Source: Vibrio ulleungensis
Lineage (GTDB): Bacteria; Pseudomonadota; Gammaproteobacteria; Enterobacterales; Vibrionaceae
DNA length: 40,000 bases
Assembly: GCF_016900875.1 (NCBI RefSeq)
Contig: NZ_JAFEUM010000001.1
Location: forward strand, 235,241 to 275,240
Direction of reading: 5' to 3'
Positions 12,552-40,000 of the stretch are shown here, piece after piece. The translations under genes and the position numbers were made by a program. The notes below the pieces were generated by a model that made no database searches, had not been told where the DNA came from, and worked only from the letters and a program-made list of their open reading frames with translations. Every line of letters begins with the position of its first letter. The stretch's first letter is position 1.

Positions 12552-12556
12552 CGCAC

Positions 12557-14872: not shown

Positions 14873-14894
14873 ATTAAGTTAAGCGGTCGGGCAT

Positions 14895-14925
14895 CTAACA
14901 AACGACTATGGCGTCAGTAGCCAAT
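14895..14925 (+). repeat. truncated attC-like left half at the end of the intact array
   Basis: CTAACAAACGACTATGGCGTCAG resembles the R''/L'' start of the other attCs. No GCGTTA-type R' follows before the next ORF. Confidence 0.3.
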
Positions 14926-14999
14926 CCATCGCGATATTCCCAACCCCTAGCTCGGTCTAATTCAGGTATACTACCCAATTGACCACCAGACCAAGCCTT

Positions 15000-15293
15000 A
15001 TGAATATCCCCACCAAAACTCTATCAACCCTCGAAGTATCCTGCTCAAATTGCAAAGCGTGTTGTTGCCGCTTAGAGGTTATGATTCTCACCGATACTGG
15101 CGTGCCGGAAGAGCATATAAAGCGTGATAGATGGGGCGGTGAAACCATGCTTAGGCTATCGGATGGTTGGTGCTCTGCGTTAGACCGCGAACTCTACACA
15201 TGCACAATTTATGAAAATCGCCCTTTAATTTGTAGAGAGTTTGAAATGGGCTCATACGAATGCAAGGATGAACGAGCAGAATACAATTTATAA
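15000..15293 (+). CDS. YkgJ-family cysteine-cluster protein (97 aa)
   Basis: CSNCKACCC (CxxCxxCC) and YENRPLICREF motifs typical of the YkgJ/UPF0153 family. First ATG at 15000. Confidence 0.75.
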   Translation: MNIPTKTLSTLEVSCSNCKACCCRLEVMILTDTGVPEEHIKRDRWGGETMLRLSDGWCSALDRELYTCTIYENRPLICREFEMGSYECKDERAEYNL

Positions 15294-15300
15294 TGTTGAC

Positions 15301-15432
15301 ATAACTCTTTAAAAGACAACTTAAGCGGGCAGTCACAATGTGGCGCTACTTATTTGGGCTTTAGGTGGGTGATCGCGGCGGTTCGTTCGACCCATGAGGT
15401 CGCGTTTTTCGCCTGTTTATTGGGCGTTGATA
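15301..15432 (+). repeat. degenerate attC-like element (candidate)
   Basis: It starts ATAAC 8 nt after the stop. It ends CCTGTTTATTGGGCGTTGATA, which aligns to the consensus end CCTTAATGCGGCGTTA with R' changed to GTTG. Length is 132 bp, close to the long class, but the arms pair poorly. Confidence 0.3.
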
Positions 15433-15465
15433 GTTCTATTTTAAGATTTCAGTCGCGGAGGCTGT

Positions 15466-16233
15466 GTGGCTAAAAAATATTATGTTGTTTGGAAAGGACG
15501 TGAAACGGGCATTTTCACCACTTGGCCTAAGTGCAAGTCACTGGTTGATGGTTTTGCGGGTGCTCGGTATAAGTCGTTCCCAACTTTAGAAGAAGCCGAG
15601 TCTGCGTTTGGTGGTAGCTCGACTAATACCGCTGCGAGCAAAGCAATAAAGGGCGCAAGCAAGCCTAAAAAAGTAAAAGCAGCTCCGCTCACTCAGCAGC
15701 AAATTGATGCTATGGAGTATCAAGTTAAAGTCTTTACCGATGGCGCCTGCGATCCAAACCCAGGTGAAGCGGGGACTGGTCTGGCGGTGTATGACGACAA
15801 TGTATTGAGTGAGCTTTGGTATGGCCTTTACCAATCTATGGGCACAAATAATACCGCTGAGCTAAATGGTCTAAACCAAGCGCTGATCATCGCTAAAGAG
15901 AAGTTAAGCTCTGGCCAAACTGTGGGTATTTTTTGTGACTCTAAATACTCAATCGACTGCATTACCAAATGGGCCGCTGGTTGGGAGAAAAATGGTTGGA
16001 CGAAAGCGGGTGGTGAGATTAAAAACCTAGACATTATTCAACCTGCGTATGCGCTGTATCAGGAAATTGCTTCTAAGATCGCTATTCATCATGTCAACGG
16101 ACACGTGGGCATTGAGGGGAATGAGTTGGCTGACAGGATGTCTATTGTTGCTATTGATGCCAAGGACGAAAATCTGTCACGCTACCGAGAGATTGATGAT
16201 GTTCCTGCCATATTAGCGCTGCGTACGGGTTAA
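15466..16233 (+). CDS. ribonuclease H (type 1) with N-terminal hybrid-binding domain (255 aa)
   Basis: The N-terminus KKYYVVWKGRETGIFTTWPKCKSLVDGFAGARYKSFPTLEEAESAF is the HBD (dsRHbd) pattern. The catalytic DEDD set is in VFTDGAC, NNTAELNGL, IFCDSKY and GNELADRMS. GTG start after GGAGG. Confidence 0.9.
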   Translation: MAKKYYVVWKGRETGIFTTWPKCKSLVDGFAGARYKSFPTLEEAESAFGGSSTNTAASKAIKGASKPKKVKAAPLTQQQIDAMEYQVKVFTDGACDPNPGEAGTGLAVYDDNVLSELWYGLYQSMGTNNTAELNGLNQALIIAKEKLSSGQTVGIFCDSKYSIDCITKWAAGWEKNGWTKAGGEIKNLDIIQPAYALYQEIASKIAIHHVNGHVGIEGNELADRMSIVAIDAKDENLSRYREIDDVPAILALRTG

Positions 16234-16249
16234 TATTGATACGCCTATC

Positions 16250-16340
16250 GAGGTTATTTGAGTCGGCTTTATGAACGCGTGTAGACTCACTTTTGCTTAA
16301 CTAGGCTACGCGCCAGTTTCTCCTTAAAGTCGGTAAGCCA
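16250..16340 (+). repeat. attC relic (candidate)
   Basis: It contains GAACGCGTG (16273-16281, identical 9-mer in attC 5), a central inverted repeat CGCGTGTAG/CTACGCG, and an end CTCCTTAAAGTCGGTAAG resembling CACCTTAATGCGGCGTTAG. Confidence 0.3.
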
Positions 16341-16371
16341 CCACGATGATGTAATCGCGGTGGCTAAAAAA

Positions 16372-16713
16372 CTACTTGTCTACAAACATGTGATTAGCTT
16401 TAGTCACACCGCGATCGTAGGTGCAGAATGTATCGGTTGCGGCTTCAGTTTTACTGTGAATTTTGATGTTAGTGATCACTTCAAGAGCGCCCGCGTCATA
16501 ACAGGCTTGTTGGGCGTCTTTTACAATCTCGAGCAGATGGTTTAGCTCTCCTCTCATTGTTGTTTCCATCGCGCCTACCTGAAAGGGCACATCCGCCGCT
16601 TTTACCACCTCAATCGCTTTATCAACGACTTCAAAGTTATTCCCTTCTTTTAGTCTAGGGATAACTTGGAATGCGACGTATACGTCTTTGATGACTGGGT
16701 TTTGATTGGACAT
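16372..16713 (-). CDS. MTH1187/YkoF-like thiamine-binding-fold protein (113 aa)
   Basis: VAFQVIPRLKEGNNFEVVDKAIEVVKAADVPFQVGAMETTMRGELNHLLEIVKDA matches the DUF77/MTH1187 pattern. It is reversed relative to its neighbours. Confidence 0.7.
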   Translation of the reverse strand: MSNQNPVIKDVYVAFQVIPRLKEGNNFEVVDKAIEVVKAADVPFQVGAMETTMRGELNHLLEIVKDAQQACYDAGALEVITNIKIHSKTEAATDTFCTYDRGVTKANHMFVDK

Positions 16714-17003
16714 GGTTGTTTTATCTCATGATTTTTACAGATGCTGCATGTTACCATTTTTGCGGTTGTGGTGAAGTCGGTTGGCAATCCTCCCCATAAG
16801 CTATCGACCGATAGGTTTTGCTTTTTGACCTGTCTTAGTGTGAAAATCAACAGATAAAGTATTGGATACGAGACATATTTGTCATCGCAGTCTTGCTAAT
16901 GTTTGGTATGTATCTCATTGATTATCAATTGATTACTAAGCCTCGCAACACATTTAAGTTAGCATGCACAGTGTATTGGATATCGCGTAAAAAGGAATGA
17001 TTA

Positions 17004-17294
17004 ATGGCCAAGTATCAGTTCTTCTGCCAGCCAGGAAAAGAGCGACAAAACTTCACGTTTCTTGTCATGGGGACCGAGACCTTTTTAGAAGAAAAGGCTC
17101 AGCTATTGAACTCTGGGCTTGAAGTTGACGGTGACGTCATTTTTGCGTCCACCGATCGCGAAGCCATCGAGAAGTACACCTCCCACTTTACTCACCTGAC
17201 GGAAGAGATGAATAATTCTCACCCAGAAAGTGCAGCGGTTAATGCGTTTTTGCAAATCGCCAAGGCAATTAACCAACGTTGGTTCAAGCGCTAA
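17004..17294 (+). CDS. hypothetical protein (96 aa)
   Basis: ORF with AAAGGA RBS upstream. No family recognised. Confidence 0.5.
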   Translation: MAKYQFFCQPGKERQNFTFLVMGTETFLEEKAQLLNSGLEVDGDVIFASTDREAIEKYTSHFTHLTEEMNNSHPESAAVNAFLQIAKAINQRWFKR

Positions 17295-17308
17295 GCGTCC
17301 GTTTCTAC

Positions 17309-17385
17309 GAGTCAAAGCATGTATGATTGGAACGCAAGCGCGCATCGGTTTGCCCGTTGTCTAACCTTACTCAGATTTGTTAGGT
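17309..17385 (+). repeat. attC relic with mutated R''
   Basis: CAAAGCATGTATGATTGGAACGC (17313-17335) aligns to the consensus CAAAGCATTTAAGAGTGATTCGCAACGC. The end AACCTTACTCAGATTTGTTAGGT keeps L'-like ACCTTA and R' GTTAGGT (17379-17385). The position expected for ATAAC reads GAGTC. Confidence 0.4.
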
Positions 17386-17418
17386 GGTTTACGTCCACAA
17401 TTTATTGAGAAAGACACA

Positions 17419-18126
17419 ATGAAAAAAGTAATGGTTAGTTTACTGCTCGTCGTCGCGCTGGCAGCAGGCTTGTGGCAGCTTAGCAAAGCGAGAAGTTTCC
17501 AGCTGTTTGGCGACATTGTGTCACAGGTTGAGACGTCCGAGAAGCTTATTGCGCTGACATTTGATGATGGACCGTGGAATGCCGATATTACTGACCAAGT
17601 GTTAGACACCCTCAATCAGCATCAGGTGAAAGCAACCTTCTATTTGAATGGCAAAGGTATGGCGTCCAACCCTAATGCGACCAGCAGTATCATTGGTCAT
17701 GGACATGAGATTGGCAATCACAGTTACTCACACGACAGATTGGTGTTTAAAACTCCCACAGAAATAGCCTACGAAATTGAGACCACCAATCAATTAATTC
17801 GTTCGGCTGGGTATGAGGGCGACATTACCTTTCGGCCGCCTTACGGTAAAAAGCTGTTTGTATTGCCGCATTACTTGTCTCAGCAAGACATAGTCACTGT
17901 AATGTGGAGCATTGAGCCCGAGACCTATTCAGAGATAAATAAGAGCTCAGAATCCATCGCAGAGTTTGTTATCGAGCAGTCAAAGCCAGGGGCGATTATA
18001 TTGCTGCATGTTCTTGGCAGCAAAAACACTCACGCCAGAGACGCCTTACCCTCTATTATTGACGGATTAAAGCAAGACGGATTTGAATTTGTCACAGTGT
18101 CTGAGCTGCTTGAGAAAAAGTCTTAA
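17419..18126 (+). CDS. polysaccharide deacetylase (NodB-homology domain), secreted (235 aa)
   Basis: Signal peptide MKKVMVSLLLVVALAAG. NodB motifs TFDDGP, HEIGNHSYSH and RPPYG. Confidence 0.85.
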   Translation: MKKVMVSLLLVVALAAGLWQLSKARSFQLFGDIVSQVETSEKLIALTFDDGPWNADITDQVLDTLNQHQVKATFYLNGKGMASNPNATSSIIGHGHEIGNHSYSHDRLVFKTPTEIAYEIETTNQLIRSAGYEGDITFRPPYGKKLFVLPHYLSQQDIVTVMWSIEPETYSEINKSSESIAEFVIEQSKPGAIILLHVLGSKNTHARDALPSIIDGLKQDGFEFVTVSELLEKKS

Positions 18127-18245
18127 CAAAATGATAGGCTCAGATAATGTGTACCAGCCTTAAGAAGCTCACAAGTAAGTGACCATTCACTTACCCTGTA
18201 ACTCGACCTATTCTTTCACGGGATACCGAATCAAAAGGAAGCAAC

Positions 18246-18527
18246 ATGAATTTAGATAAAGCAAAAAAGCGAATCGCAAAACACGTTAAGAAAGGCTTCA
18301 ATGGTTACCCACAAATCACCTTAGCGTACTACGGCGATACCAAAGAGTGCGCAACAGAGGTGGTGCTTCAATTTAAGATGGCCGAGGGTGAAAGCGCCCA
18401 AGAGGAGCGGTTTTCTTGTGAGACCGAGATACGAGAAAATGAGCTTATTCAAACCACTGTGCTAAAGATTATTGAACGAGCGAACGTGAGTTCTGTGATT
18501 GAAGTTGAAGGTGTTGCGGTTCGTTGA
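18246..18527 (+). CDS. hypothetical protein (93 aa)
   Basis: AAAAGGAAG RBS followed by ATG. No family recognised. Confidence 0.5.
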   Translation: MNLDKAKKRIAKHVKKGFNGYPQITLAYYGDTKECATEVVLQFKMAEGESAQEERFSCETEIRENELIQTTVLKIIERANVSSVIEVEGVAVR

Positions 18528-18675
18528 TGAATGAACGGGCTAAATCAGTGCTCGAATTTCAATTAGCTGATTGATGAGTGTGACAGTCACTTTTAACTAA
18601 ACTAATTAAAGTAAAGGCTGAATTTACGATGCGAACTCGTATAAGCTTTGACTTTAATTATTGATGGAGGACTCA

Positions 18676-19014
18676 ATGCCGATTGCTCACTGCGTGCTCT
18701 CACCCTATGTTGCCAATCCAAGCAATGATTCAACACTGCTTATTGAAAAGTGGGGACGACATTCTGGATTAGACTCCTCAGAAATGACCATAACCATTGT
18801 ACAAGCGATAGACCAAGCGGGTAAATCGTACGACGCGACTTGCACCTTAACTTTACCCAACCTATGGTCACCTAAATCCGTGAGTTTGCTCCAATTGGGC
18901 TTGGCAAGCGCTCTCTCAGAGCATTTTGGGATCGAGCCGGATAAGGTTATTGTAATGACATCGCTTATTGAGTCTGGCCGCGTGGTTGACGGCGGAAACG
19001 AAATAAACTGGTAA
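18676..19014 (+). CDS. tautomerase/MIF-superfamily-like protein (112 aa), tentative
   Basis: Starts MP (Pro1 after Met removal) right after a GGAGG RBS. The C-terminal LSEHFGIEPDKVIVMTSLIESGRVVDGG resembles the MIF-type beta-alpha-beta repeat. The assignment is weak. Confidence 0.5.
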   Translation: MPIAHCVLSPYVANPSNDSTLLIEKWGRHSGLDSSEMTITIVQAIDQAGKSYDATCTLTLPNLWSPKSVSLLQLGLASALSEHFGIEPDKVIVMTSLIESGRVVDGGNEINW

Positions 19015-19020
19015 GGCGTT

Positions 19021-19085: not shown

Positions 19086-19119
19086 CGTGCGGTGATGCGA
19101 AAGCGTGGGGAGATAGGAC

Positions 19120-19338: not shown

Positions 19339-19396
19339 CTCAATAACAGTTTTTTGAGGCGTTTTTGCCTTTCACGATGAACACATGGAGTGTGCA

Positions 19397-21205: not shown

Positions 21206-21342
21206 CGGCGGATCAATTTGTCACTTTTATTCAGCGCTGCTGCTTGAAGCCTATGTATAGTTACGACGGTATTGGCTTTGTAGGCAGTTAAAGGTAACGT
21301 TAAGAAACACTTACTAAAATAATCACAGGCTAGAATTCCAAC

Positions 21343-21555
21343 ATGGACAGTGAGATTGAATGTTGCAGCGTCGAATCGCCTTGCGTGCGAAATTGCTGCT
21401 TAGATGAGCACGATATTTGTGTGGGCTGTTTTCGTAGCATTGACGAAATTGTTGCTTGGTCGGGTGCATCAGACCAAGAAAAGAAAACCGTCCTGCATCA
21501 TTGCCATTCACGAAAACATGCGCGAAAACAAGCTCGTGGAAATAAGCCTTCGTAA
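21343..21555 (+). CDS. DUF1289-like small Cys-rich protein (70 aa)
   Basis: SPCVRNCCLDEHDICVGCFRSIDEIVAWS matches the DUF1289 pattern. Confidence 0.7.
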   Translation: MDSEIECCSVESPCVRNCCLDEHDICVGCFRSIDEIVAWSGASDQEKKTVLHHCHSRKHARKQARGNKPS

Positions 21556-21666
21556 CAGTTGAGACAGTGCTCACTCGGCAATCGCGTTGCACTTTTGATG
21601 TTCTAAGTAAACTTTGCTAATCGCAATTTGGGTTTTGTAGCGTAATTTACAAAGAGAGGGATTCTA

Positions 21667-23723: not shown

Positions 23724-24380
23724 ATGGAAAAAACAGAACAGTCGTACGAGCACATGGACTTTTCTAGGCAGGATTTAAATGGCAGCGTATTTTCAAAATG
23801 CACTTTTGTCCGCTGTAACTTTAGCCGCGCAAACTTAAGAGACGTTCAGTTTGTAGATTGCACCTTCCTCGAACAAGGCAATTTAGACGGCTGTGACTTT
23901 TCTTACGCTGATCTACGCGATGCATCGTTCAAGCGTTGTCGACTTTCTTTGGCCACATTTAATGGTGCCAACCGCTTTGGTATTGAGATGAGAGAGTGCG
24001 ATCTCAAAGGAGCTAGCTTTATACAAACCAGTTTCGTGAATCAGGTGTCCAACAAAATGTACTTTTGTTCGGCTTACATTACCGGCTGTAATTTGTCGTA
24101 CGCAAACTTCGAAAAGCAGGTGATTGAAAAGTGCGATCTATTCGAAAATAGATGGATTGGAGCCAATTTAAGTGGCGCATCGTTTAAAGAATCCGATCTG
24201 AGCCGCGGTGTTTTTTCTGAAGAGTGTTGGTCGCAGTTTACTGTGCGCGGATGCGATTTGAGTCACTCAGAGCTTTATGGCTTAGATCCAAGAAGGGTCG
24301 ATCTTACTGGGGTGAAGATTTGTGCATGGCAACAAGAGCAGTTGTTGGAGCCGTTAGGGCTTATTGTGGTACCTGATTGA
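23724..24380 (+). CDS. qnr: Qnr-family pentapeptide-repeat protein (218 aa)
   Basis: Length and sequence are collinear with QnrA-type proteins: FSRQDL, FSYADLRDASFKRCRLSLA, ECDLKGA, NKMYFCSAYITGCNLSYANF, GVKICAWQQEQLLEPLGLIVVPD. GAGGA RBS at 23712. Confidence 0.92.
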   Translation: MEKTEQSYEHMDFSRQDLNGSVFSKCTFVRCNFSRANLRDVQFVDCTFLEQGNLDGCDFSYADLRDASFKRCRLSLATFNGANRFGIEMRECDLKGASFIQTSFVNQVSNKMYFCSAYITGCNLSYANFEKQVIEKCDLFENRWIGANLSGASFKESDLSRGVFSEECWSQFTVRGCDLSHSELYGLDPRRVDLTGVKICAWQQEQLLEPLGLIVVPD

Positions 24381-25091: not shown

Positions 25092-25124
25092 ACCTGAATA
25101 TGCAGTAAATACTAAATGGTGAAT

Positions 25125-25162
25125 AAAACGCCCAAAGCAGTGTGCTTTGGGCGTTTTTGTTT
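25125..25162 (+). terminator. rho-independent terminator
   Basis: AAAACGCCCAAAGCA (25125-25139) pairs with TGCTTTGGGCGTTTT (25143-25157) around a 3-nt loop, followed by TTTTTGTTT. Confidence 0.85.
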
Positions 25163-25351
25163 GCGTTGGTTCGGCTTAGTCATACCAACCAAAGCAATTA
25201 ACTGGTCATTCTTGCTTGTTAAAATAGCTAATAGCTGCGTTAAAGATTTTGTAGGTAGAACAACTATCTACGGCAATCTTTGCCTTGCTCTTAGCGATTT
25301 TACCGGCGCAATTTTCTGTCCAGTCAATTACTTCGATTGGTGTAAATAGCG

Positions 25352-25819
25352 CTATGAGTGGCTAGTAGGGCGGCTGTTGCTCATTAATTTGTCTAATGTC
25401 TTTTGAGCTTTTGTTGGGTTATTTAGGTCTACAACCTCAATCATTTCACACTCATCACGCACCATTTCGTCAATCAAACTTGGGTAGTGGCGACAATCTT
25501 CTGGCCTGTCGAGGTAGATGCTGCAGGTGTATTTGTCTTTTTCGTCTGGCCGAGCTTTAGCAGCAAGCTCTAAGAATGGGCAGCGGCGCAGAGGCTCTTT
25601 GGTGTTAGGGTCGTGCCAAATTTTACCGTTGTGGACATAGTCAAAAATATCGGGGTTAAACAGCTCCCAAAGGTCAATTTCTTCCTGTGTGGCTGCGAGA
25701 TCGCCGTCGCCATATTTAATGCAGCATTTACCGCACTGGTTACACTCTTTCATGGCCTCAATTAGGGTTAGGGAGAGTGGGACGAGTGTATCACCGAACA
25801 CTCGGATCCGTTTCATCAT
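25352..25819 (-). CDS. YkgJ-family cysteine-cluster protein (155 aa)
   Basis: CNQCGKCCIKYG (CxxCxxCC), RRCPFL and CSIYLDRPEDCRHYP. It is the second paralogue of this family in the window and the downstream gene of a reversed pair. Confidence 0.75.
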   Translation of the reverse strand: MMKRIRVFGDTLVPLSLTLIEAMKECNQCGKCCIKYGDGDLAATQEEIDLWELFNPDIFDYVHNGKIWHDPNTKEPLRRCPFLELAAKARPDEKDKYTCSIYLDRPEDCRHYPSLIDEMVRDECEMIEVVDLNNPTKAQKTLDKLMSNSRPTSHS

Positions 25820-27878: not shown

Positions 27879-27918
27879 AAAAACGCATTGAACAAAAATG
27901 CCACCAAGGATAGATGTA

Positions 27919-28701
27919 ATGGAGTCTAAAGACCTTTCTCAAATGGGCAGAGCATCGGTTAAACTGGCCGAGCATGAAGGACGGCCTTGCGTCATAAAAA
28001 ATAACGCAGCCATTACGGAGGTTGCTTTCTATAAGCATACAGCGCCACGACTGAATGAGGTTGGTGTGGTCGTTCCCGAAGTTTATGAGATAAATGGAAA
28101 TACCCTAGTACTTGAGTATGTACCTCATGCCGTTTCTGTTGACGAGCTTTCTCGCTCTCCCCAAACCTTCGCTCAGCTTGCAGCAATACACGAATATAGC
28201 GAGCCAGCTACTCATAATATGCATTGCCATCATTGGCCGCTTAACGCGTCTTTGCGTGCCTTAGCATCGCTTAATCTCCCACAAGAATCACTGGATGCTT
28301 TTGAGCATATTTTCGCCGCGAAACACCTACTTTTTAATCACCAATCGGCTATTTCCGGTGACAGCAATGCTGGTAACTGGGCACGTAGGGCCAATGGGCA
28401 ATATGTGCAGTTTGATTGGGAGAGATTTGGTTATGGCTGTCCAACCATCGATCTAGCACCCTTGGTTAAAGGTATGGGCACATTGGACGATTTTGAACGA
28501 GTGATCGCTCATTACGCTAGGTTTGGCCACGCTAATTTACCTGCTAATCCACTGCGCAATCTTATCGTGGCTAAAACGTGGATCGTGGTTGAAGTTATTA
28601 ACCTGCTCGAGTTACGAAATAAACCTCAAAAAAACACCTATATAGAGTGGTACAACAAGGTACTACCTAGCTGGTTAAACAAAATGGCTCACGCTTTATA
28701 G
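27919..28701 (+). CDS. APH/choline-kinase-fold phosphotransferase (260 aa)
   Basis: ISGDSNAGNW (Brenner-type xGDxxxxN) followed by VQFDWERFGYG (DxE/DFG-like). Start at the ATG at 27919, 8 nt after AAGGA. Confidence 0.7.
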   Translation: MESKDLSQMGRASVKLAEHEGRPCVIKNNAAITEVAFYKHTAPRLNEVGVVVPEVYEINGNTLVLEYVPHAVSVDELSRSPQTFAQLAAIHEYSEPATHNMHCHHWPLNASLRALASLNLPQESLDAFEHIFAAKHLLFNHQSAISGDSNAGNWARRANGQYVQFDWERFGYGCPTIDLAPLVKGMGTLDDFERVIAHYARFGHANLPANPLRNLIVAKTWIVVEVINLLELRNKPQKNTYIEWYNKVLPSWLNKMAHAL

Positions 28702-28794: not shown

Positions 28795-29043
28795 ATGAGC
28801 GACTCTAACACTAAGCCAGCACTTCCAGATCACCTATCAGGTAACCCACGCAGCCCTCACCACGTGGCAGAATGCTTTGAACATCCAATCGGTATTCGTC
28901 TTGATGGTAAAGAGCGTACAGACGTGGAAGAGTACTGCATCAGTGAAGGTTGGGTGAAGATCCCTTCACCAAAAGCGAAAGACCGTTGGGGTCAACCAAT
29001 GTTGATCAAACTAAAAGGTGCTGTTGAGGCTTATTACAAGTAA
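28795..29043 (+). CDS. DUF3297-like protein (82 aa)
   Basis: PRSPHHVAECFEHPIGIRLDGKERTDVEEYCISEGWVKI...LIKLKGAVEAYYK matches my recollection of DUF3297. Confidence 0.7.
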   Translation: MSDSNTKPALPDHLSGNPRSPHHVAECFEHPIGIRLDGKERTDVEEYCISEGWVKIPSPKAKDRWGQPMLIKLKGAVEAYYK

Positions 29044-29065
29044 GCCACTCACCAACAAAGTGATA

Positions 29066-29103
29066 CGAGATAGAGCGCGCTTCGCTCTGTCTCGACACTT
29101 TTT
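29066..29103 (+). terminator. rho-independent terminator (candidate)
   Basis: CGAGATAGAGCG (29066-29077) pairs with CGCTCTGTCTCG (29083-29094) with one wobble, then ACACTTTTT. Confidence 0.6.
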
Positions 29104-29180
29104 AGCTTCTCATTATTAATGACAACACTCGTTCTTTGAGGTGTTTTTTACTACCCTGCAATCAAGTTGCGATTATTGCT

Positions 29181-29687
29181 TTAGGCTGCGGTTAGCCGCT
29201 CTAACGTGTTGTCAGTAGGCAGTGCGTCGCCAATGACTTCCCCTGATGCTGTATAACAAGCCAGTCCACTCATCACTTTTTCAAACGCGCCTTTCATTAT
29301 CGGCCGCATCACAAAATGCCCTAGTAACCACCCTAATGGTCCCGCTTTTACCAAGAAATCGGTCGACATTGTGATTTCGCAAGACGTATCACTTAATGGG
29401 ATAACCGAAATGTCTGAATACATATATTTTAGCGGGAACGAATAGTCCGACAGCTCCATGCGATAGCCCTCTCCATCGTTGTACTCGATGATCGTTTCGA
29501 TCAAGCTCGAACCGTCCGCAAATCTGCACTGACGCTGTGCGCCAAGCCCTGTGTGAGTTTCGCCGATGATCGATGACGATTGAATGGTTGGCGCGTAATG
29601 TTCAATTCCACCAAAGTCGTCGAGTATTTTCCAAACTGCCGAAGCCGAAAGGTTGAATGTCATGGCTTTCTCAATGTGCTGTTTCAT
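29181..29687 (-). CDS. SRPBCC (START/polyketide-cyclase-like) protein (168 aa)
   Basis: FNLSASAVWKILDDFGGIEHYAPTIQSS...CEITMSTDFLVKAGPLGWLLG pattern. It lies downstream of the TetR gene on the same strand. Confidence 0.75.
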   Translation of the reverse strand: MKQHIEKAMTFNLSASAVWKILDDFGGIEHYAPTIQSSSIIGETHTGLGAQRQCRFADGSSLIETIIEYNDGEGYRMELSDYSFPLKYMYSDISVIPLSDTSCEITMSTDFLVKAGPLGWLLGHFVMRPIMKGAFEKVMSGLACYTASGEVIGDALPTDNTLERLTAA

Positions 29688-29735
29688 AGGTAAATCCTTT
29701 TTTGCCAGCGAGTGTCAAACAGTAGACAGTACGAC

Positions 29736-30383
29736 TTAGCCTACGCGTAGCCCTTTAACAATGATGCAAATAGAGTTAAAGAGGTCGTTGTTAAAATCGG
29801 GTTTTAGCATTTTGAATTCATCCAAGGCATAGACACTGTCTAAGACCGCATTGCGCGTGGCCCCTGCCCAATAATTGGATGTGGCTGCAAAGCTTAGAGA
29901 TAAGAATTGAAAAGCCTTGTCACCCTGTATGTCGGGATAAATTCGCGCTATGTCGAGTGTGAGCATGTAAAGCAGCTCTTTCGAACGACGCTTAAAGACG
30001 GTTAACTGTTCAAGTGAACTGTTGCGCTCTAAAGCAGTGAACAGCAGTGGAATGAGGTCTAAAAACTCGGGGTGAGCGAGATAGGCGTCCACCCAAAGTT
30101 GGGAAAATGTTTCTGTGGGAGAGTCGACCTCTAGTTTTTGTAAACGTGTTTGGGTGTCCGAAAACCAAACTTCAAACAGATCTTGAAATATGCCCAAAAA
30201 AATCTCTTCTTTAGAGCTGAAATAGCGGTACATATTTGATTTGGTAAATCCGGCTTGAGCAGCGATACCGTTAAAGCTAACGCCATCGTACCCATGAGCC
30301 TTAAACAGTGTGTAGGCAGCGTCGTAAATCGCAGCTTTTCTTTCATTCCGCTTGTCGTCTGTTCTTGCTCGTTTCCAACTCAT
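29736..30383 (-). CDS. TetR/AcrR-family transcriptional regulator (215 aa)
   Basis: N-terminal HTH RKAAIYDAAYTLFKAHGYDGVSFNGIAAQAGFTKSNMYRYFSSKEEIF. Confidence 0.9.
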   Translation of the reverse strand: MSWKRARTDDKRNERKAAIYDAAYTLFKAHGYDGVSFNGIAAQAGFTKSNMYRYFSSKEEIFLGIFQDLFEVWFSDTQTRLQKLEVDSPTETFSQLWVDAYLAHPEFLDLIPLLFTALERNSSLEQLTVFKRRSKELLYMLTLDIARIYPDIQGDKAFQFLSLSFAATSNYWAGATRNAVLDSVYALDEFKMLKPDFNNDLFNSICIIVKGLRVG

Positions 30384-31303: not shown

Positions 31304-31327
31304 CACAAGGCCACAAGGCCACAAGGC
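31304..31327. repeat. perfect 8-bp tandem repeat x3 (CACAAGGC)
   Basis: CACAAGGCCACAAGGCCACAAGGC read directly, 37 nt upstream of the ATG at 31364. Confidence 0.9.
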
Positions 31328-31363: not shown

Positions 31364-31777
31364 ATGTCTGATCCTATTTCACAACACATCGGCAGCATTG
31401 CGCTGGTGGTCGAAGATTATGATGACGCTATCGAGTTCTATACGCAAAAACTGGCGTTTACCTTGGTGGAGGATACCGATCTTGGTGACGGAAAACGTTG
31501 GGTACTCGTCTCCCCTCCAAACTCCAATGGCACCCACTTGTTGCTGGCCAAAGCGAGTAATACTGCGCAGGCTAATGCAGTAGGAAACCAAACCGGCGGG
31601 CGTGTATTTTTGTTTTTGCACACCAACGACTTTTGGCGAGATTATCGTCAAATGGAAGCCAATGGCGTGGTGTTTAATGAAGAGCCAAGGGTTGAACCTT
31701 ATGGAACCGTTGTGGTTTTTCAGGATCTCTATGGAACCAAATGGGATCTGCTACAACTCAACTCAGCCTCTAATTAG
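31364..31777 (+). CDS. VOC/glyoxalase-family protein (137 aa)
   Basis: IGSIALVVEDYDDAIEFYTQKLAFTLVED...RVFLFLHTNDFWRDY...VVFQDLYGTKWDLL. Confidence 0.85.
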   Translation: MSDPISQHIGSIALVVEDYDDAIEFYTQKLAFTLVEDTDLGDGKRWVLVSPPNSNGTHLLLAKASNTAQANAVGNQTGGRVFLFLHTNDFWRDYRQMEANGVVFNEEPRVEPYGTVVVFQDLYGTKWDLLQLNSASN

Positions 31778-32787: not shown

Positions 32788-32983
32788 TCTCTAGCGATGA
32801 TGGGATCCATCATAACCGAGTTAGGTACGGTGTGGTTTGCAGATACTATGTGGTTGTAGACTTAAAGGTATTTATGATTAGGTCTTAATCTAACTTTAAA
32901 TCAATAACTTAAAAGTTTTGTCTTCTGCCAGTCATTCGCGATTCATGACTGATGTGGATGCAAATGACCCACTAGGAATCTCA

Positions 32984-33409
32984 ATGAAAAATACATCACT
33001 ACTATTAGCCCTACTTGCCATAACCACTAGCACCGCCATGGCGAACAATCTCAGCGATGAAAAAATTGAATTTGAACACGACATGGCAGGCCTTTCTAGC
33101 GAAGTGGCCGAAGAAGTGTTTGCGCAAGTAGAAGTTTCCCCAAGCTTTGAAGAAGTGGAATACCAAAGCTACATCGTTGAACACTACAATAAAATATACG
33201 TGACTCGTCATGAAGCAAAAGAGCTTGGCTTAGAAAGAGTGGCCAAATTTCATGTGTTTGACAAAACGACCTTAGATAAAGTCAGCGATGAAATTAAAGT
33301 GCGCATTGAGAAAGAGCAACCAGACTATTTTTCGGTTGATCTATTTCGCGAGTTTCACAGCGATACCCACACATTTCGTTACTTTGCCCGTGTGATTGAA
33401 TACAAATAA
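32984..33409 (+). CDS. secreted hypothetical protein (141 aa)
   Basis: Signal peptide MKNTSLLLALLAITTSTAMA. Start at the in-frame ATG at 32984. Confidence 0.6.
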   Translation: MKNTSLLLALLAITTSTAMANNLSDEKIEFEHDMAGLSSEVAEEVFAQVEVSPSFEEVEYQSYIVEHYNKIYVTRHEAKELGLERVAKFHVFDKTTLDKVSDEIKVRIEKEQPDYFSVDLFREFHSDTHTFRYFARVIEYK

Positions 33410-33462: not shown

Positions 33463-33520
33463 CGTTGTGGCAAAAAACGTGTATTCTTTGAGCAAATGGA
33501 TACGCGTTAGACTTTCGAAT

Positions 33521-34090
33521 ATGGACATCATCATACTAAACGGAGCAAGTAGCTCAGGGAAAAGCTCGCTGGCTAAAGAACTACAAAACCAGTTATCTCA
33601 ACCTTACTTACACATCGGCATCGATACGTTTATAGCCATGATGCCGGACAAATGTAACGCCCTTGATGGCTCAAAGCGTATCAGTGATGGCTTTTACTGG
33701 GCATCGACAAGGCAAGATGAGCAACCAATGCTCACCATACAGCGCGGCGCTTATGGCCATAAAATCAATCAACTTTATCGCTCAACGGTGAAGCATTTTG
33801 CCGATACTGGTTTTAACGTCATTGTCGATGACGTCATGAATGGTCAGCAAGAGCAGGCTCAATGGCAACAAGCGCTTGAGGATCACCAAGTGACGTATGT
33901 TGGCGTGTTTTGTGATGAAGACGTTTTGAATGAGCGCGAAAAAAACCGCGAAGATCGTCAATGCGGAACCGCCATAGAACAAGCGCGGCGAGTCCATGTT
34001 GGCGTTGGTTATGATGTTACTGTCGATACATCTCAATCAAGCGCTAACGAGTGCGCCCACCGTATTGTATTGTCGATGCAACAGGTTTAA
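33521..34090 (+). CDS. chloramphenicol-phosphotransferase-like (CPT-family) P-loop kinase (189 aa)
   Basis: MDIIILNGASSSGKSSLAKELQ...YLHIGIDTFIAMMP parallels the CPT N-terminus (ILNGxSSxGKS...GVDxxIxxMP). Start at the ATG at 33521. Confidence 0.8.
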   Translation: MDIIILNGASSSGKSSLAKELQNQLSQPYLHIGIDTFIAMMPDKCNALDGSKRISDGFYWASTRQDEQPMLTIQRGAYGHKINQLYRSTVKHFADTGFNVIVDDVMNGQQEQAQWQQALEDHQVTYVGVFCDEDVLNEREKNREDRQCGTAIEQARRVHVGVGYDVTVDTSQSSANECAHRIVLSMQQV

Positions 34091-34856: not shown

Positions 34857-34934
34857 TTATCGTCAAGCTGATAAAATAGTCCACATAAGTACCCAAATCA
34901 ATTCAGCTACTTTTGATTCGCAAGGATGTGCAAC

Positions 34935-35540
34935 ATGAACCCAAAACAGATTGGCCAAGCTTACGATCAAATTACAGGTTTGTGGGAGAAGCCTGAATTT
35001 AATCTAAACAATGGCATAGATGCGCATGTCAAAGCGATTGAGCTTACCCAGTCACGTGGGTTGGCGTTGGATATTGGCTGTGGGTTAACTGGACGATTTA
35101 TACACCTGTTGAAGCAACAAGGTTTTACGCCAAGCGGTCTGGATGTGTCGAAGAAAATGCTGGATATTGCTCGACATCGGATGCCAGAAATCTCATTTAT
35201 TGAAGCGGATATCTGCACTTATTCCATGCAAGAAGAGTACGACTTTATTAGCGCATGGGACAGCATTTGGCATATTCCGTTAAGTGAGCAAAAAGCGGTA
35301 CTGACAAAGATTGTGGATAGCCTAAATCCTAATGGAGTGTTTATTTTGTCTTTTGGTGGAGTAGATGAAGCAGGCGATCACGTTGATGACTTTATGGGGC
35401 CACAAGTCTATTACTCCTCCTTGGGTACAAGCGGTTTTTTGTCGCTGTTTATTGAATTGAACTGCCAAATAAAGCATTTGGAATTTGATCAATACCCAGA
35501 GCTTCATGCTTATATGATTGTACAAAAGCAGGCAGTGTGA
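34935..35540 (+). CDS. class I SAM-dependent methyltransferase (201 aa)
   Basis: ALDIGCGLTGRF motif I, then DFISAWDSIWHIP and PNGVFILSFGG. Confidence 0.8.
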   Translation: MNPKQIGQAYDQITGLWEKPEFNLNNGIDAHVKAIELTQSRGLALDIGCGLTGRFIHLLKQQGFTPSGLDVSKKMLDIARHRMPEISFIEADICTYSMQEEYDFISAWDSIWHIPLSEQKAVLTKIVDSLNPNGVFILSFGGVDEAGDHVDDFMGPQVYYSSLGTSGFLSLFIELNCQIKHLEFDQYPELHAYMIVQKQAV

Positions 35541-36863: not shown

Positions 36864-36905
36864 GAGGCTGTCCGTGTGTGATTATGGGCCAAAGGGCTAG
36901 TGCTA

Positions 36906-36925
36906 GTTATGGGGCTCGCCAACCG
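36906..36925 (+). repeat. copy of the attI/cassette-1 junction sequence
   Basis: GTTATGGGGCTCGCCAACCG (36906-36925) compared with GTTATGGCTCGCCTAACCG at 7386-7404. The two are identical apart from one extra G and one missing T. Confidence 0.6.
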
Positions 36926-37062
36926 CGCGAGTGATTATATTGTGCTAGCTTATAGTGATGTTGCATTGAAGAGCAGTATCAACGTGGTAACGCTACTAAT
37001 TCGTGCTTCGTGTATTGCCCTTATCATTAACATATTGTTTTTCCAACGTTAAAGGAGAAGCC

Positions 37063-37524
37063 ATGGCCATCAATTATGTTCAACTTAACGGAGATCACCT
37101 TGAGTGGATGAAGCAGCTTATGGATTGCTTTGGAACCGTTTTTGAAGAACCGGAGAATTACGGCCACAAACGACCCACGGACGCTTATTTAACAGAGCGA
37201 TTGAATGATCCGTCATTTATCGCACTGGTGGCGTTAGAGGGTGATCAAGTGGTGGCAGGGCTGGTGGCCTATGAGCTGAAAAAGTTCGAGCAGGCTCGCA
37301 GTGAAGTGTACATCTACGATCTGGGGGTATATGAACGCTTTCGAAGACAAGGGATCGCAACCGGACTGATTAACGCATTGAAGCCTATCGCAAAGAACAT
37401 GGGCGCTTGGGTGATTTTTGTGCAAGCTGATTATGTCGATGAACCTGCTATAAAGCTTTATGACTCTTTGGGTGAGAAAGAAGAAGTACTGCATTTTGAT
37501 ATCCCTGTTCAATGGAAGCCATAA
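37063..37524 (+). CDS. AAC(3)-I-like aminoglycoside N-acetyltransferase (GNAT, 153 aa)
   Basis: FIALVALEGDQVVAGLVAYELKKFEQARSEVYIYDLGVYERFRRQGIATGLINALK...GAWVIFVQADYVDEPAIKLYDSLGEKEEVLHFDI is collinear with AAC(3)-Ia (KFEQPRSEIYIYDLAV...RRQGIATALI...YVQADYGDDPAVALY...EEVMHFDI). AAAGGAG RBS. Confidence 0.85.
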   Translation: MAINYVQLNGDHLEWMKQLMDCFGTVFEEPENYGHKRPTDAYLTERLNDPSFIALVALEGDQVVAGLVAYELKKFEQARSEVYIYDLGVYERFRRQGIATGLINALKPIAKNMGAWVIFVQADYVDEPAIKLYDSLGEKEEVLHFDIPVQWKP

Positions 37525-37548
37525 CCAGAAATCCGGAGACTCTGATTC

Positions 37549-37866
37549 ATGAAATTTAACCATTTAGGGATCCCTACCACCGAGCGTTTTGAGGGTGAAA
37601 TCGATCTTCCACACCTAAAAATGACCGTATCGGATCATCAAAGTAACCCTTATGGGATCCAGTGGCAGCGATATTGGGATGATGCACCCTATCCCGAATT
37701 GGTTAAATCCGTGCCGCACGTTGCCTTTGAAGTTGAGGATCTCCACGCCGAATTGCAGGGCAAAAACGTGATTATTAAGCCAAACTCACCCAGTGAAGGG
37801 CTGATTGTGGCATTTATTGAAGTTGATGGTGCCCCTGTTGAGTTGATGCAGTATTTGAAATCCTAA
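37549..37866 (+). CDS. VOC-fold-like small protein (105 aa)
   Basis: MKFNHLGIPT...VPHVAFEVEDLHAEL...VAFIEVDGAPVELMQ. It starts only 24 nt after the aac(3)-like stop. Confidence 0.6.
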   Translation: MKFNHLGIPTTERFEGEIDLPHLKMTVSDHQSNPYGIQWQRYWDDAPYPELVKSVPHVAFEVEDLHAELQGKNVIIKPNSPSEGLIVAFIEVDGAPVELMQYLKS

Positions 37867-38017
37867 ATCATCGTTGCCGATAAACAGTATTTGGTTGCCC
37901 TAAATCAGTAAGCTTGGTTGTTTTTTGTACTACTCTGGCAGCCATAAGGTGGCGGTGCGATGAACAGGCGGACACTTTTCTGAGCCGTCTGTGCGCATGA
38001 TGATGAGGAGTATCACT

Positions 38018-38554
38018 ATGGCCAGGCCAAAGACTAAGCAAGAACTGATAGAACAATCGCAGGTTAACTTCGATAAGCTTTGGCAAGTTATCGATAGTAT
38101 GTCAACGCGAGCGCTAGAGACGGAGTTCGATTTTGACTCTGACCCCAAAAAGAAAGAAGCTCACTGGCAAAGAGACAAAAACCTTCGCGATATACTTATC
38201 CATCTCTATGAGTGGCATCAACTGTTACTTAACTGGGTCAATGGTAATTTGTGTGGAAAAAACACCCCTTTCTTACCCCCTCCATACAATTGGAAAACCT
38301 ATGGAGAGTTGAATATTCAATTTTGGGATAAGCATCAGTCGACTCAATTGCAACAAGCTAAAAAGATGCTTAGGCAAAGTCATGCAGAGGCCCTAGATCT
38401 TGTTACGACGTTTAGCAATGACGAGCTCTTCACCAAACAGTTTTATGACTGGACAGGCACTACAACCCTAGGCAGTTACTGTGTGTCTGCATTACCGAGC
38501 CATTATGATTGGGCAACGAAGAAATTGCGTGCGCACATTAAACAGGTATCCTAA
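38018..38554 (+). CDS. ClbS/DfsB-family four-helix-bundle protein (178 aa)
   Basis: MARPKTKQELIEQSQVNFDKLWQVIDSMS...ILIHLYEWHQLLLNW...PPYNWKTYGELN matches the ClbS/DUF1706 pattern. GAGGAG RBS before the ATG at 38018. Confidence 0.8.
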   Translation: MARPKTKQELIEQSQVNFDKLWQVIDSMSTRALETEFDFDSDPKKKEAHWQRDKNLRDILIHLYEWHQLLLNWVNGNLCGKNTPFLPPPYNWKTYGELNIQFWDKHQSTQLQQAKKMLRQSHAEALDLVTTFSNDELFTKQFYDWTGTTTLGSYCVSALPSHYDWATKKLRAHIKQVS

Positions 38555-38589
38555 CGTTGCAATGAATCTTTTTTGAAGAGCCTTTTACT

Positions 38590-39051
38590 TTGAACGTTAA
38601 GCCGTATACCACAGAGTATCAGTCCCAATGTTTGGCGATATTTGACAGTAATGTTGGGGTCTATTTTGACCCATCAGAGCGTAACGATTTTGTCGCTTAT
38701 CTAGAAGATGCAAATGCAGTGCAACACTACTTTGTGTTTGAGGAGCAAGGAACCGTTGTAGCCTGTGGTGGGTATTTCGCCAATCAAAACACAGGCTCTC
38801 TGGCTTGGGGAATGGTACATCGCCTCTACCATAGGCGAGGATTTGGCGCTGAGATAACTGATTTTCGCATGGCGCAGATCAAACGTATTTCCAGCATAGA
38901 CAGGATTAAGATTGAAACGTCACAACTTACGCAAGGCTTTTATGCCAAGCGAGGTTTTGAGGTAACAGACATTGTTGAAAATGGATATGGCCAAGGCATT
39001 GATTATGTGTCGATGACATTCCATTGTGGTGATTATCAAACCAGCGAATAA
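38590..39051 (+). CDS. GNAT-family N-acetyltransferase (153 aa)
   Basis: VHRLYHRRGFGAEITDFRMAQI...FYAKRGFEV. TTG start with no strong RBS. Confidence 0.7.
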   Translation: MNVKPYTTEYQSQCLAIFDSNVGVYFDPSERNDFVAYLEDANAVQHYFVFEEQGTVVACGGYFANQNTGSLAWGMVHRLYHRRGFGAEITDFRMAQIKRISSIDRIKIETSQLTQGFYAKRGFEVTDIVENGYGQGIDYVSMTFHCGDYQTSE

Positions 39052-39078
39052 CTGAACAGCCAAGCGTAAGGAGACGCG

Positions 39079-39654
39079 ATGAACATAGGGATATATATCT
39101 ACGATGATGCAGAGGTGCTCGACTTTTCAGGTCCATTTGAAGTATTTAGCACCGCCAAGCGTCTAGCCTCTAATCACTGGAATGTCTTTTTAGTTGCTGA
39201 GCACAATGAGCCCGTTGTTGCCAGAGGTGGTTATCAAGTGCTCCCTCACTATAGTATGTCGAACCATCCTGAGATTGATCTACTGGTTGTGGTTGGTGGC
39301 GTTCATACCGCCGAGCTTGAGAAGCCAGCAGTGATCGATTGGATTGCACGAGTCGACAAGCAGGCTACTCATGTCATTTCTGTTTGTACCGGAGCCTTTT
39401 TGTTGGCTAAGGCTGGGGTTATTGATGGTAAAGCTGTGACAACCCATTGGGAAGATATTGGCGATTTGCGAGATGGCTTTCCTCAATTAGAGGTCGTTGA
39501 GGGTAGGCGCTGGGTCGATACTGGAAAGTACGTGACCAGCGGCGGAATATCAGCGGGCATCGATATGAGTTTGCATATGGTCTCGCGTTTAACTAACTAT
39601 CTATTTGCTCAATCGGTGGCTCGTCAAATGGATTACCAATGGCAACAAAGGTAG
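39079..39654 (+). CDS. DJ-1/PfpI-family (class I glutamine amidotransferase-like) protein (191 aa)
   Basis: LLVVVGG...VISVCTGAFLLAKAGVIDGKAVTTHW nucleophile-elbow cysteine motif. Confidence 0.85.
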   Translation: MNIGIYIYDDAEVLDFSGPFEVFSTAKRLASNHWNVFLVAEHNEPVVARGGYQVLPHYSMSNHPEIDLLVVVGGVHTAELEKPAVIDWIARVDKQATHVISVCTGAFLLAKAGVIDGKAVTTHWEDIGDLRDGFPQLEVVEGRRWVDTGKYVTSGGISAGIDMSLHMVSRLTNYLFAQSVARQMDYQWQQR

Positions 39655-39661
39655 CGCCCAG

Positions 39662-40000
39662 ATGATTAAGTTCTCTACCGAGCGGCTTATGATCACAGAG
39701 CTCAGTCGCGCCGATCTGCAAAAGCCGTTTATGGACTCTCTGTGTGTGCGGATCCCAACTCTATTAACCGCAAAAGTTGTCGAAAATCTGCCACCCTATT
39801 TTCACAATATTGCGAGTCGGCAAGATGCGCGCCAGTGGTTAGAGATTTTGCTCGCAGAGAGTGTGCTGCTTATGGTTGAGTCGAGAGACAGTGAAGAGGT
39901 GGTTGGTTTTTTGTTTGCGTCTCCTTGTGATGACGGTGCGCATATCGGTTATTTACTTGCTGAGTCGCACTGGGGCAAGGGGTTGGCCAGCGAATTACTG
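39662..40000 (+). CDS. GNAT-family N-acetyltransferase, 5' partial (runs off window end)
   Basis: Manual translation from the ATG at 39662 gives MIKFSTERLMITELSRADL...VVGFLFASPCDDGAHIGYLLAESHWGKGLASELL (RimJ/RimL-like motif A). The frame is open to position 40000. Not in the ORF track. Confidence 0.7.
   Translation, partial: MIKFSTERLMITELSRADLQKPFMDSLCVRIPTLLTAKVVENLPPYFHNIASRQDARQWLEILLAESVLLMVESRDSEEVVGFLFASPCDDGAHIGYLLAESHWGKGLASELL

Follow-up and report, generated by a model that had tools for sequence, protein, structure and literature searches.

Integron cassette arrays of Vibrio lie 2.8-5.7% below the G+C content of their host (Boucher et al. 2006, PMC1382264). Section 7 of the same study describes pairs of Vibrio cassette and non-cassette homologues with 70-76% identity and without traces of the 59-base element (59-be), and leaves the direction of transfer open, as the generation of a cassette and the insertion at a secondary site were indistinguishable. 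Insertion of this second kind appears to leave a non-functional 59-be. Arrays that were frozen after inactivation of the integron platform have also been described (bioRxiv 10.1101/2025.06.18.660453). Here we report on a stretch of 40,000 nucleotides from Vibrio ulleungensis (assembly GCF_016900875.1, contig NZ_JAFEUM010000001.1, positions 235,241 to 275,240; the whole stretch is called the window), in which a chromosomal integron is followed by a long tract of small genes. An earlier reading of the letters alone, in the following the original prediction, had taken everything from position 14,873 onwards as a fossilised continuation of the cassette array with eroded attC sites in the spacers. 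We found that the working integron stops at about position 15,434, where, after eleven intact attCs and a truncated one, a CxxCxxCC cassette is closed by a final attC of degenerate form. The tract behind it is best read, at about even confidence, as the distal chromosomal flank of the integron, an old small-gene locus of fast turnover which exchanges genes with the array, and not as an array decayed in place.

The integrase gene intI (6187-7146, minus strand) lies directly downstream of zwf-pgl-gnd (2371-6145, plus strand). Its product of 319 aa carries the Pfam domains Phage_integrase and Phage_int_SAM_4 and is 44-47% identical to integrases adjoining qnrVC cassettes. The working array occupies 7796-14267 on the plus strand, and its eleven attCs (7796-7894, 8314-8411, 9069-9144, 9731-9828, 10096-10197, 10670-10754, 11390-11519, 12045-12171, 12554-12653, 13429-13527 and 14154-14267) were recognised by repeat families, by their classic R''-L''...L'-R' hairpin folds and by covariance models, with scores of 34.8-102 bits. 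The cassette genes between them have a G+C content at third codon positions (GC3) of 0.36 and a median length of 140 aa. Two toxin-antitoxin cassettes stand at the distal part of the array. A Phd/YefM-YoeB pair (14311-14872, plus strand; Pfam YoeB_toxin, 146 bits) follows the last intact attC. An inverted ParE-type cassette (13542-14185, minus strand; counterparts at L040:4994-5640 and L041:1576-2225) is found with 77-84% identity in the distal array part of V. ulleungensis, V. agarivorans and V. maerlii, an unusual conservation for a cassette.

Two covariance models were used, R1 built from the eleven attCs of the window and R2 from 48 attCs of the window and five other genomes. RNAalifold on a MAFFT alignment gave the R and L boxes only, so a 15-pair structure taken from six attCs of 95-100 nt was imposed; the E-values are rough, as the calibration was shortened. 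With filters off, both models recovered the eleven known sites at 35-102 bits. Beyond these only 15306-15367 was significant (21.7 and 20.7 bits for R1 and R2, E 0.003-0.008), all other matches having E >= 0.8. The low-threshold search that the original prediction had called for thus added nothing to the array apart from the degenerate site at 15306-15434, and no match better than E = 0.8 was obtained by either model from 15,435 to 40,000. Judged by the definition of clusters of attC sites lacking integrases (CALINs), at least two attCs close together, the tract contains no attC.

The end of the integron can be followed in the sequence behind the YoeB cassette. A probable truncated attC (14895-14920, plus strand, TAACAAACGAC...) retains the R''/L'' half only and is fused to a backbone shared with the sister strain Vibrio sp. 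qd031, the homology to which begins just past it. This piece is a weak covariance match (9.4 bits, E = 5); in attC alignments its spacer reached z = 2.8, equalled by 1 of 100 shuffles. Next comes the CxxCxxCC gene (14979-15293, plus strand, PF03692) and, behind it, the degenerate terminal attC of about 129 nt (15306-15434, plus strand), in which R'' reads TAAA instead of TAAC and R' reads GTTG instead of GTTA. R1 scored this site with 21.7 bits (E 0.003) and R2 its part 15306-15367 with 20.7 bits, while 15369-15411 fits the centre of the model. In qd031 a 129-nt attC (L005:798-926; R2 38.5 bits, E 6e-7) aligns to 15306-15434, and therefore the CxxCxxCC gene is the last cassette of the array. 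In both the window and qd031 the covariance matches end with this site. Positional counterparts of the terminal attC exist in V. agarivorans (31.6 bits, after the same CxxCxxCC gene) and in V. maerlii (35 bits), where this last attC stands directly upstream of an RNase H1 gene. The orthologues of the CxxCxxCC gene in these two species are 78-84% identical; the one in V. agarivorans is followed by an attC and the one in V. maerlii lies in the attC-free zone, so that three genomes have the gene as a cassette and a fourth has it as part of the tract. A different cassette stands upstream of the CxxCxxCC unit in qd031, and thus the array varies while the backbone is common. The predicted continuation of the array beyond 14,873 therefore holds for exactly one cassette, the CxxCxxCC gene with its attC; from the RNase H1 gene at 15466 onward there is no attC.

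The attC-free tract (15466-40000, plus strand) comprises 42 open reading frames (ORFs), 37 of them on the plus strand, and runs off the window. Counted from 14,873 there are 43 ORFs, 38 on the strand of the array, with a median of 150 aa and spacers of 2-334 nt, and the median of the tract ORFs (150-152 aa) compares with 140 aa for true cassettes. Pfam assigns eight GNAT, three VOC and two SRPBCC members, a GST, a GFA, a methyltransferase and many DUFs, to which Qnr, CPT-like (33467-34090) and APH-like (27898-28701) genes are added. The tract has a G+C content of 0.458 and a GC3 of 0.469, compared with 0.489 and 0.501 for zwf, pgl, gnd and intI and 0.401 and 0.359 for the cassettes (Mann-Whitney p = 7e-6), and its GC3 is homogeneous and host-like (0.469 +/- 0.043). 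One of the tract proteins matches an NCBI entry of V. ulleungensis with 100% identity. The run of small, mostly co-oriented genes, the cassette-typical functions (GNAT, VOC, SRPBCC, GST, methyltransferase, DUFs) and the base composition nearer to core genes than to proximal cassettes had all been described correctly by the original prediction. The architecture is an outlier: 18 other chromosomal loci have median ORFs of 190-390 aa and lack a comparable strand bias.

In several respects the tract resembles a Vibrio superintegron array. It adjoins an intI/attI/attC array and shares its strand, it is densely packed with small genes, GNAT, VOC, toxin-like and DUF functions are among them and the content varies between close strains. 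It differs from such an array by the lack of attCs from 15,466 on, by its host-like GC3 and by random deletions in place of cassette-precise changes. From this likeness one can argue that most genes between 15.4 kb and the tract end were cassettes inserted downstream of RNase H1, which lost their attCs by hairpin deletion and subsequent mutation and were retained as useful, with a few ancestral genes such as RNase H1 and DUF3297 embedded among them. We regard such a fossil array as possible and rather doubtful. It is the best account of the extreme architecture and of the short live array, and contiguity speaks for it: intI on the minus strand is followed by the array on the plus strand up to 15,434 and by 37 of 42 ORFs in this same orientation, with cassette-like gene size, density and functions. 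In addition, the quality of the attCs drops towards the end of the array, from 57.9 bits to the truncated site and to about 21 bits, a trend that is repeated at locus L051 (65.7, 25.2 and 24.4 bits). The expected traces are missing, however: no test gave an attC signal beyond about 18 kb, and the distal end likewise has none. Some 40 attCs would have to be lost completely and independently of each other, in several cases down to a spacer of only 12-30 nt, and host-like GC3 together with attC-free synteny at 76-87% identity means that any loss is old and traceless.

Every string that had been quoted as a remnant is present at its place in the sequence. As remnants they are at chance level, since covariance, k-mer, position-specific scoring matrix (PSSM) and TAAC..GTTA tests gave no excess beyond about 18 kb over reversed attCs, which served as a control with the same composition and without homology. 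The spacers contain 112, 39 and 14 of the 8-, 9- and 10-mers of the attCs, compared with 93, 32 and 13 of those of the reversed attCs (p = 0.08, 0.03 and 0.02 against shuffled attCs). There is an excess of attC k-mers over dinucleotide-shuffled spacers (p = 0.003-0.02; 112 against 73 for k = 8), but it is nearly matched by reversed attCs, and the k-mer signal was lost once reversed or shuffled attCs served as the k-mer source. The asymmetry of the k-mers between plus and minus strand is likewise a composition effect, because reversed attCs show it too. Matches to PSSMs of the conserved 5' and 3' attC modules were no more numerous than with reversed PSSMs. The short TAAC-N(2-14)-GTTA palindromes, interpreted earlier as collapsed hairpins, number 10 against an expectation of 8.9 +/- 2.9, and no repeat common to the tract spacers was detected. 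Of 19 TAA stop codons, 7 are followed by C (a manual count; p about 0.08 in a rough binomial calculated by hand), and TAACAAA occurs in one case only. For genome scanning in general, this means that short attC-consensus matches between genes have no value unless they are compared with a control of matched composition.

Gapped alignment, which allows for a deleted hairpin interior, gave a more differentiated picture. Here attCs beat the reversed control only in the first six spacers, at 14.9-18.2 kb, a post-hoc split which favours a fossil array; isolated outliers are the spacers 29,038-29,180 and 34,866-34,925. A weak attC-like stretch follows RNase H1 (16255-16320, plus strand, TTGAGTCGGCTTTATGAACGCGTG...ACTCAC..GCTTAAC). 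It matches attC5 with 79% over 24 nt, its spacer has z = 1.7, equalled by 5 of 100 shuffles, neither covariance model recovers it, and it is not significant alone. The best match of the tract to the 5' attC module (23869-23893, 18.3 bits, TCGAACAAGGCAATTTAGACGGCTG) is located inside the qnr coding sequence and was taken as chance; the reversed matrix also gave one match above 12 bits.

The lack of remnants also separates the tract from other described ways of cassette displacement and decay. Off-target insertion at secondary 'attG' sites is a known route for cassettes to land outside att sites, but a near-full-length attC is expected at first, and none was detectable, not even where close strains differ from each other. 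CALINs and inactivated integrons, for example in Xanthomonas, share with the window the decay of an integron over evolutionary time; those, however, keep recognisable attCs while the integrase is lost or broken, whereas here integrase and proximal attCs look intact and the tract is attC-free.

Four haplotypes were compared to follow the turnover of the tract: the window, qd031 (about 94% nucleotide identity) and two Logan contigs (L044 and L045). They have a common backbone at 92-96% identity and differ in at least a dozen gene-scale gaps, the version of V. ulleungensis being the most complete. The gap junctions show microhomologies of 3-13 nt, and many breakpoints lie within genes: the APH gene, a GNAT, the SRPBCC gene and the CPT-like gene are cut, and 80 bp are lost inside 37549-37866. 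Cassette-precise gain or loss at attC boundaries was not encountered at the junctions against qd031, L044 and L045. The strain comparison suggested by the original prediction therefore revealed microhomology deletions running through genes and not cassette events, with a variable array beside a common backbone, and recent turnover that is not attC-mediated speaks against a fossil array. For the tract genes common to the haplotypes the pooled dN/dS (ratio of non-synonymous to synonymous substitution rates) is 0.10, and the divergence of aligned spacers (0.084) is below dS (0.17). The comparison demonstrates that the tract genes are kept by purifying selection, are individually dispensable and are lost via microhomology-mediated deletion. 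An exceptional case is the DUF3297 gene, which is 100% identical to qd031 at the nucleotide level (dS = 0 over 81 codons, compared with the pooled dS of 0.17) and whose identical protein is also found in L044 and L045; this suggests recent recombination or that the DNA is unusually constrained.

The far end of the tract was derived from qd031 and not from V. ulleungensis itself. In qd031 the tract continues for about 6.5 kb past the position of the window end with twelve more small plus-strand genes and ends at a convergent terminator before a cluster of HD-GYP and alginate-lyase genes, without an attC at this distal end. An attC-like match at the tract end of V. maerlii (L041:6480-6567; 13.5 bits, E = 0.68) was rejected as not significant and without counterpart at the tract end of qd031. 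The distal gene order FAA hydrolase-MTase (methyltransferase)-DUF6693-x-GFA is retained at 76% identity.

Several of the tract genes recur in relatives. RNase H1 (15466-16233, plus strand; Pfam Cauli_VI and RNase_H), the first gene of the tract, is conserved with 66-80% identity across Vibrionaceae. In V. ulleungensis, V. maerlii and metagenome contig L051 it comes directly after the last attC, and in V. agarivorans and L052 it lies close to that site. In V. maerlii the last attC is followed, all within 4 kb, by RNase H1, CxxCxxCC(-), CxxCxxCC(+), glyoxalase, DUF924, a GNAT and DUF3297, before ordinary large genes begin; the set is 63-87% identical to genes of the window, which in the window span 17 kb in another order. 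Of the six recurring V. maerlii genes (RNase H1, the two CxxCxxCC genes, glyoxalase, DUF924 and DUF3297), three are also present in V. agarivorans, again in different order. Conserved anchors within the window are a second CxxCxxCC gene (25352-25819, minus strand), whose 81-87% orthologues adjoin RNase H1 in V. maerlii and V. agarivorans, the DUF3297 gene (28795-29043, plus strand), which has 86-87% identity in V. maerlii and Photobacterium rosenbergii and is there 1.4-2.8 kb from RNase H1, and a glyoxalase/VOC gene (31364-31777, plus strand), 79% identical to its orthologue in the tract of V. maerlii. The locus of P. rosenbergii comprises RNase H1 (74%), def, GFA, a methyltransferase relic and DUF3297 (86%), and no attC was found within +/-10 kb of this locus. 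The relic is a 23-aa fragment between GFA and DUF3297 (L129:11937-12005), which shares 78% identity with the tract methyltransferase (34926-35540); it has the look of a remnant left by a deletion, so the ancestral locus would have held more genes. At locus L079 a 47% homologue of RNase H1 adjoins DUF3297, and at the Splendidus-clade locus L001 RNase H1 and an APH homologue are 6 kb apart, with no attC match at E <= 1 under default filters. An RNase H1 homologue (49%) on the opposite strand, separated by about 320 nt from where an attC array ends, was observed on a metagenome contig that is not Vibrio-like (L073:2501-3286; attCs at 3609-3710 and 4480-4579, minus strand), and the association of RNase H1 with integrons may reach beyond Vibrio.

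Since this backbone occurs without an integron in Photobacterium, the anchor genes at least belong to an older chromosomal neighbourhood and are not eroded cassettes, which is a further point against a fossil array. The tract is not syntenic core genome either, in line with the original prediction: the same genes in the same order were not found across the family, six genes recurring in V. maerlii and two plus a relic in Photobacterium, so few anchors recur and their order is altered. The Qnr loci of 30 other taxa have essentially nothing in common with the tract.

The connection between tract and array becomes apparent from the cassette pool. The correspondences come from loci that were picked by homology to tract genes, and their frequency is no measure of enrichment. 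One case is RNase H1, whose homologue in V. parahaemolyticus (L042, 75-76%) is a true cassette in a long array with real cassettes on both sides, its flanking attCs being 32 nt away on the upstream and 7 nt away on the downstream side; on metagenome contig L050 it is likewise an attC-bounded cassette. The attC of the V. parahaemolyticus cassette was considered as an 'ulleungensis-type' site, but this 99-nt subtype is near-identical in V. parahaemolyticus, V. maerlii and the window and is therefore uninformative on origin. The Qnr-family pentapeptide-repeat protein (23724-24380, plus strand) is closest to QnrVC. It exceeds the NCBIfam cutoff for Qnr (376 bits, cutoff 240) and stays below that for QnrVC (428 bits, cutoff 460), and it is 78% identical both to copies each with an attC downstream (L006-L014) and to attC-free chromosomal copies (L015-L017). 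The product of 37003-37524 (plus strand) is a predicted homologue of AAC(3)-I family N-acetyltransferases, with 208.8 bits above the cutoff of 200 for NF033083; a 49% homologue is the first cassette adjoining intI in L034 (attC-like match 2479-2589). A 117-aa ORF without family assignment (18661-19014, plus strand) is 62% identical to a gene with an attC (300-429) downstream in the V. hepatarius array L014; when the spacer behind the ORF is aligned to that attC, the similarity ends at the stop codon. Conversely, an attC-free gene of V. agarivorans shares 53% identity with a true cassette gene of the window. Homologues in attC-bounded cassettes, as the original prediction had expected, thus exist for RNase H1, Qnr, AAC(3)-I and the 117-aa ORF, and they are compatible with a fossil array as well.

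The mobile-integron cassettes qnrVC and aac(3)-I are a further known system to be compared. The attC of qnrVC1 is 89% identical to superintegron repeats of V. parahaemolyticus (PMC2600354). The tract holds a Qnr with 78% identity to attC-bounded qnrVC and a protein above the AAC(3)-I cutoff; unlike the mobile cassettes, its copies are attC-free and divergent (78% and 49%), and they are relatives of the mobilised genes and not their immediate source. The two genes, attC-free chromosomal relatives of two resistance-cassette families, are located 13 kb apart. At three other loci (L035-L037; V. scophthalmi, V. ichthyoenteri and V. renipiscarius) a chromosomal qnr is found about 1.3 kb from zwf in divergent orientation, so qnr and zwf-pgl-gnd are linked elsewhere too, on the other side; no intI homologue was found at these loci. 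Vibrio sp. MA40-2 carries a 29-aa C-terminal qnr fragment (L039:8410-8534, minus strand, 83%) about 1.5 kb from an attC (10001-10087, 79 bits), possibly a truncated qnr cassette.

Could the tract be an ordinary flexible chromosomal region without any link to the integron, the adjacency being coincidental and the homologues reflecting common GNAT, Qnr and RNase H families? The lack of attCs, the host-like composition, the purifying selection, the presence of terminators and regulators in the tract itself and the deletion-driven turnover fit this explanation, and most chromosomal Qnr loci in other genera are non-cassette. We nevertheless consider it improbable, as the CxxCxxCC gene changes between cassette and tract gene, RNase H1 is tightly bounded by attCs in V. 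parahaemolyticus and abuts or neighbours the last attC in five loci, and the architecture is exceptional among the loci compared. Marine bacteria have additive flexible genomic islands, fixed chromosomal spots at which small accessory genes are present in some strains and absent from others. From these the tract differs by the absence of marks of a mobile element, having no tRNA, no transposase or integrase domains, no insertion sequence and no flanking or common repeats in a host-like composition; the only recombination machinery nearby is the integron.

The reverse relation, in which the tract is a source of cassettes and a gene just beyond the last attC is turned into a cassette by the arrival of a second attC behind it, as for RNase H1 in V. 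parahaemolyticus, has in our view a very slight chance of accounting for the locus. RNase H1 is chromosomal and integron-free in Photobacterium and in the Splendidus clade, it stands beside the last attC in several vibrios, and it is fully attC-bounded only in genomes of the V. parahaemolyticus kind; the cassette/non-cassette pairs with open direction (Boucher et al. 2006, PMC1382264, section 7) agree with such a transfer. An intermediate whose downstream attC is only half formed was not found, the sole candidate, 16255-16320, being not significant, and the explanation covers one or two genes and not the build-up of 50. The pairs of Boucher et al. (PMC1382264) resemble our case in that the same gene exists in and out of cassettes at about 70-88% identity, without a 59-be trace and with the direction unresolved. 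They differ from it because the non-cassette copies are here concentrated in one tract of about 31 kb starting at the last attC and not scattered, and because CxxCxxCC shows both states at the same locus in sister species.

Reading the tract as the distal flank of the integron brings these observations together as follows. The flank backbone (RNase H1, methyltransferase, DUF3297) would be an old Vibrionaceae neighbourhood, integron-free in Photobacterium. In the ulleungensis lineage, dozens of small accessory genes, most of them in one orientation and some horizontally acquired, would have enlarged it to about 31 kb. The next-best homologue of APH has 53% identity; among the matches listed, those of the distal MTase include no named Vibrio and reach 55-61%, except for two contigs with 76-77%, one of them syntenic with the tract, and some tract genes indeed look horizontally acquired. 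No recombination sites remain in the tract, and therefore the integrase cannot act on its genes. Exchange of genes between flank and array is nevertheless evident from the comparison of loci, because RNase H1 is attC-bounded in V. parahaemolyticus, CxxCxxCC is found on either side of the last attC and tract genes have cassette-borne relatives. As to direction and mechanism, the integrase may have acted at the array end or at secondary sites, with subsequent loss of the attC, or flank genes may have been captured between two attCs.

Several points weigh against this interpretation. An ordinary flank alone does not explain the architecture, in which about 55 genes have a median length of 150 aa and 88% of them share the strand of the array and which none of the 18 comparison loci matches, nor its position exactly where an unusually short array of 12 cassettes has its last attC. 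Close orthologues in Vibrio are lacking for several tract genes (APH, distal MTase), the order of the anchors differs between species while their orientation is kept, as cassette shuffling would do, and at least five tract gene families were found in attC-bounded cassettes despite very limited sampling. The Photobacterium locus itself could be a site vacated by an integron. The original prediction of a fossilised array is thus supported in part, by the extension by one cassette, the cassette homologues and the non-core nature of the tract, and finds no support in the quoted attC fragments, the distal end of the tract, the strain differences and the anchor genes. As a tentative synthesis, the area past the last attC might be a two-way door, where attC-less cassettes pile up as fixed genes under selection, a domestication zone with about 50 former cassettes in this case, and flank genes like RNase H1 become cassettes once an attC has arrived behind them.

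Further features concern the expression and annotation of the tract. Consensus promoter and terminator scans revealed no enrichment. Clear terminators, a TetR unit with an operator-like palindrome and spacers that are more conserved than synonymous sites would point to autonomous expression. This unit, an SRPBCC and TetR pair (29181-30383, minus strand, Pfam) with the palindromic operator-like site in its 334-nt upstream spacer, is a putative ordinary self-regulated unit; it is missing from qd031 and partly deleted in L044 and L045. The 77-aa ORF 25116-25349 is probably no gene, as it holds a bidirectional terminator with a 15-bp stem (25125-25157) between convergent genes. The minus-strand ORF 21323-21592 is spurious; the plus-strand ORF of 70 aa at 21343-21555 belongs to DUF1289 (68.6 bits) and is so annotated in qd031. 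For the ORFan 32918-33409 no relatives were found in a metagenome scan. Short tandem repeats occur in tract spacers, as (CACAAGGC)x3 at 31304-31327 upstream of the glyoxalase gene, and V. maerlii has a (CTCTGCA)n repeat between last attC and RNase H1 (L041, about 2300-2335). Rfam contains no attC family, and its sole match within the window is a glycine riboswitch aptamer (1427-1541, minus strand, RF00504, 70 bits), which precedes small ORFs of the minus strand and is clearly separate from the integron. A literature search for attC-less or fossil cassettes, or for an RNase H cassette, gave nothing specific.

The origin and fate of cassettes are long-standing open questions. CxxCxxCC and RNase H1 occur with and without attC at one chromosomal position in related species, and the direction of this change could thus be answered by phylogeny. 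Chromosomal relatives of two resistance-cassette families, QnrVC and AAC(3)-I, are located right beside a Vibrio integron. If the two-way door holds true, the locus in V. ulleungensis, qd031, V. maerlii, V. agarivorans and V. parahaemolyticus would represent a natural series of cassette birth and death.

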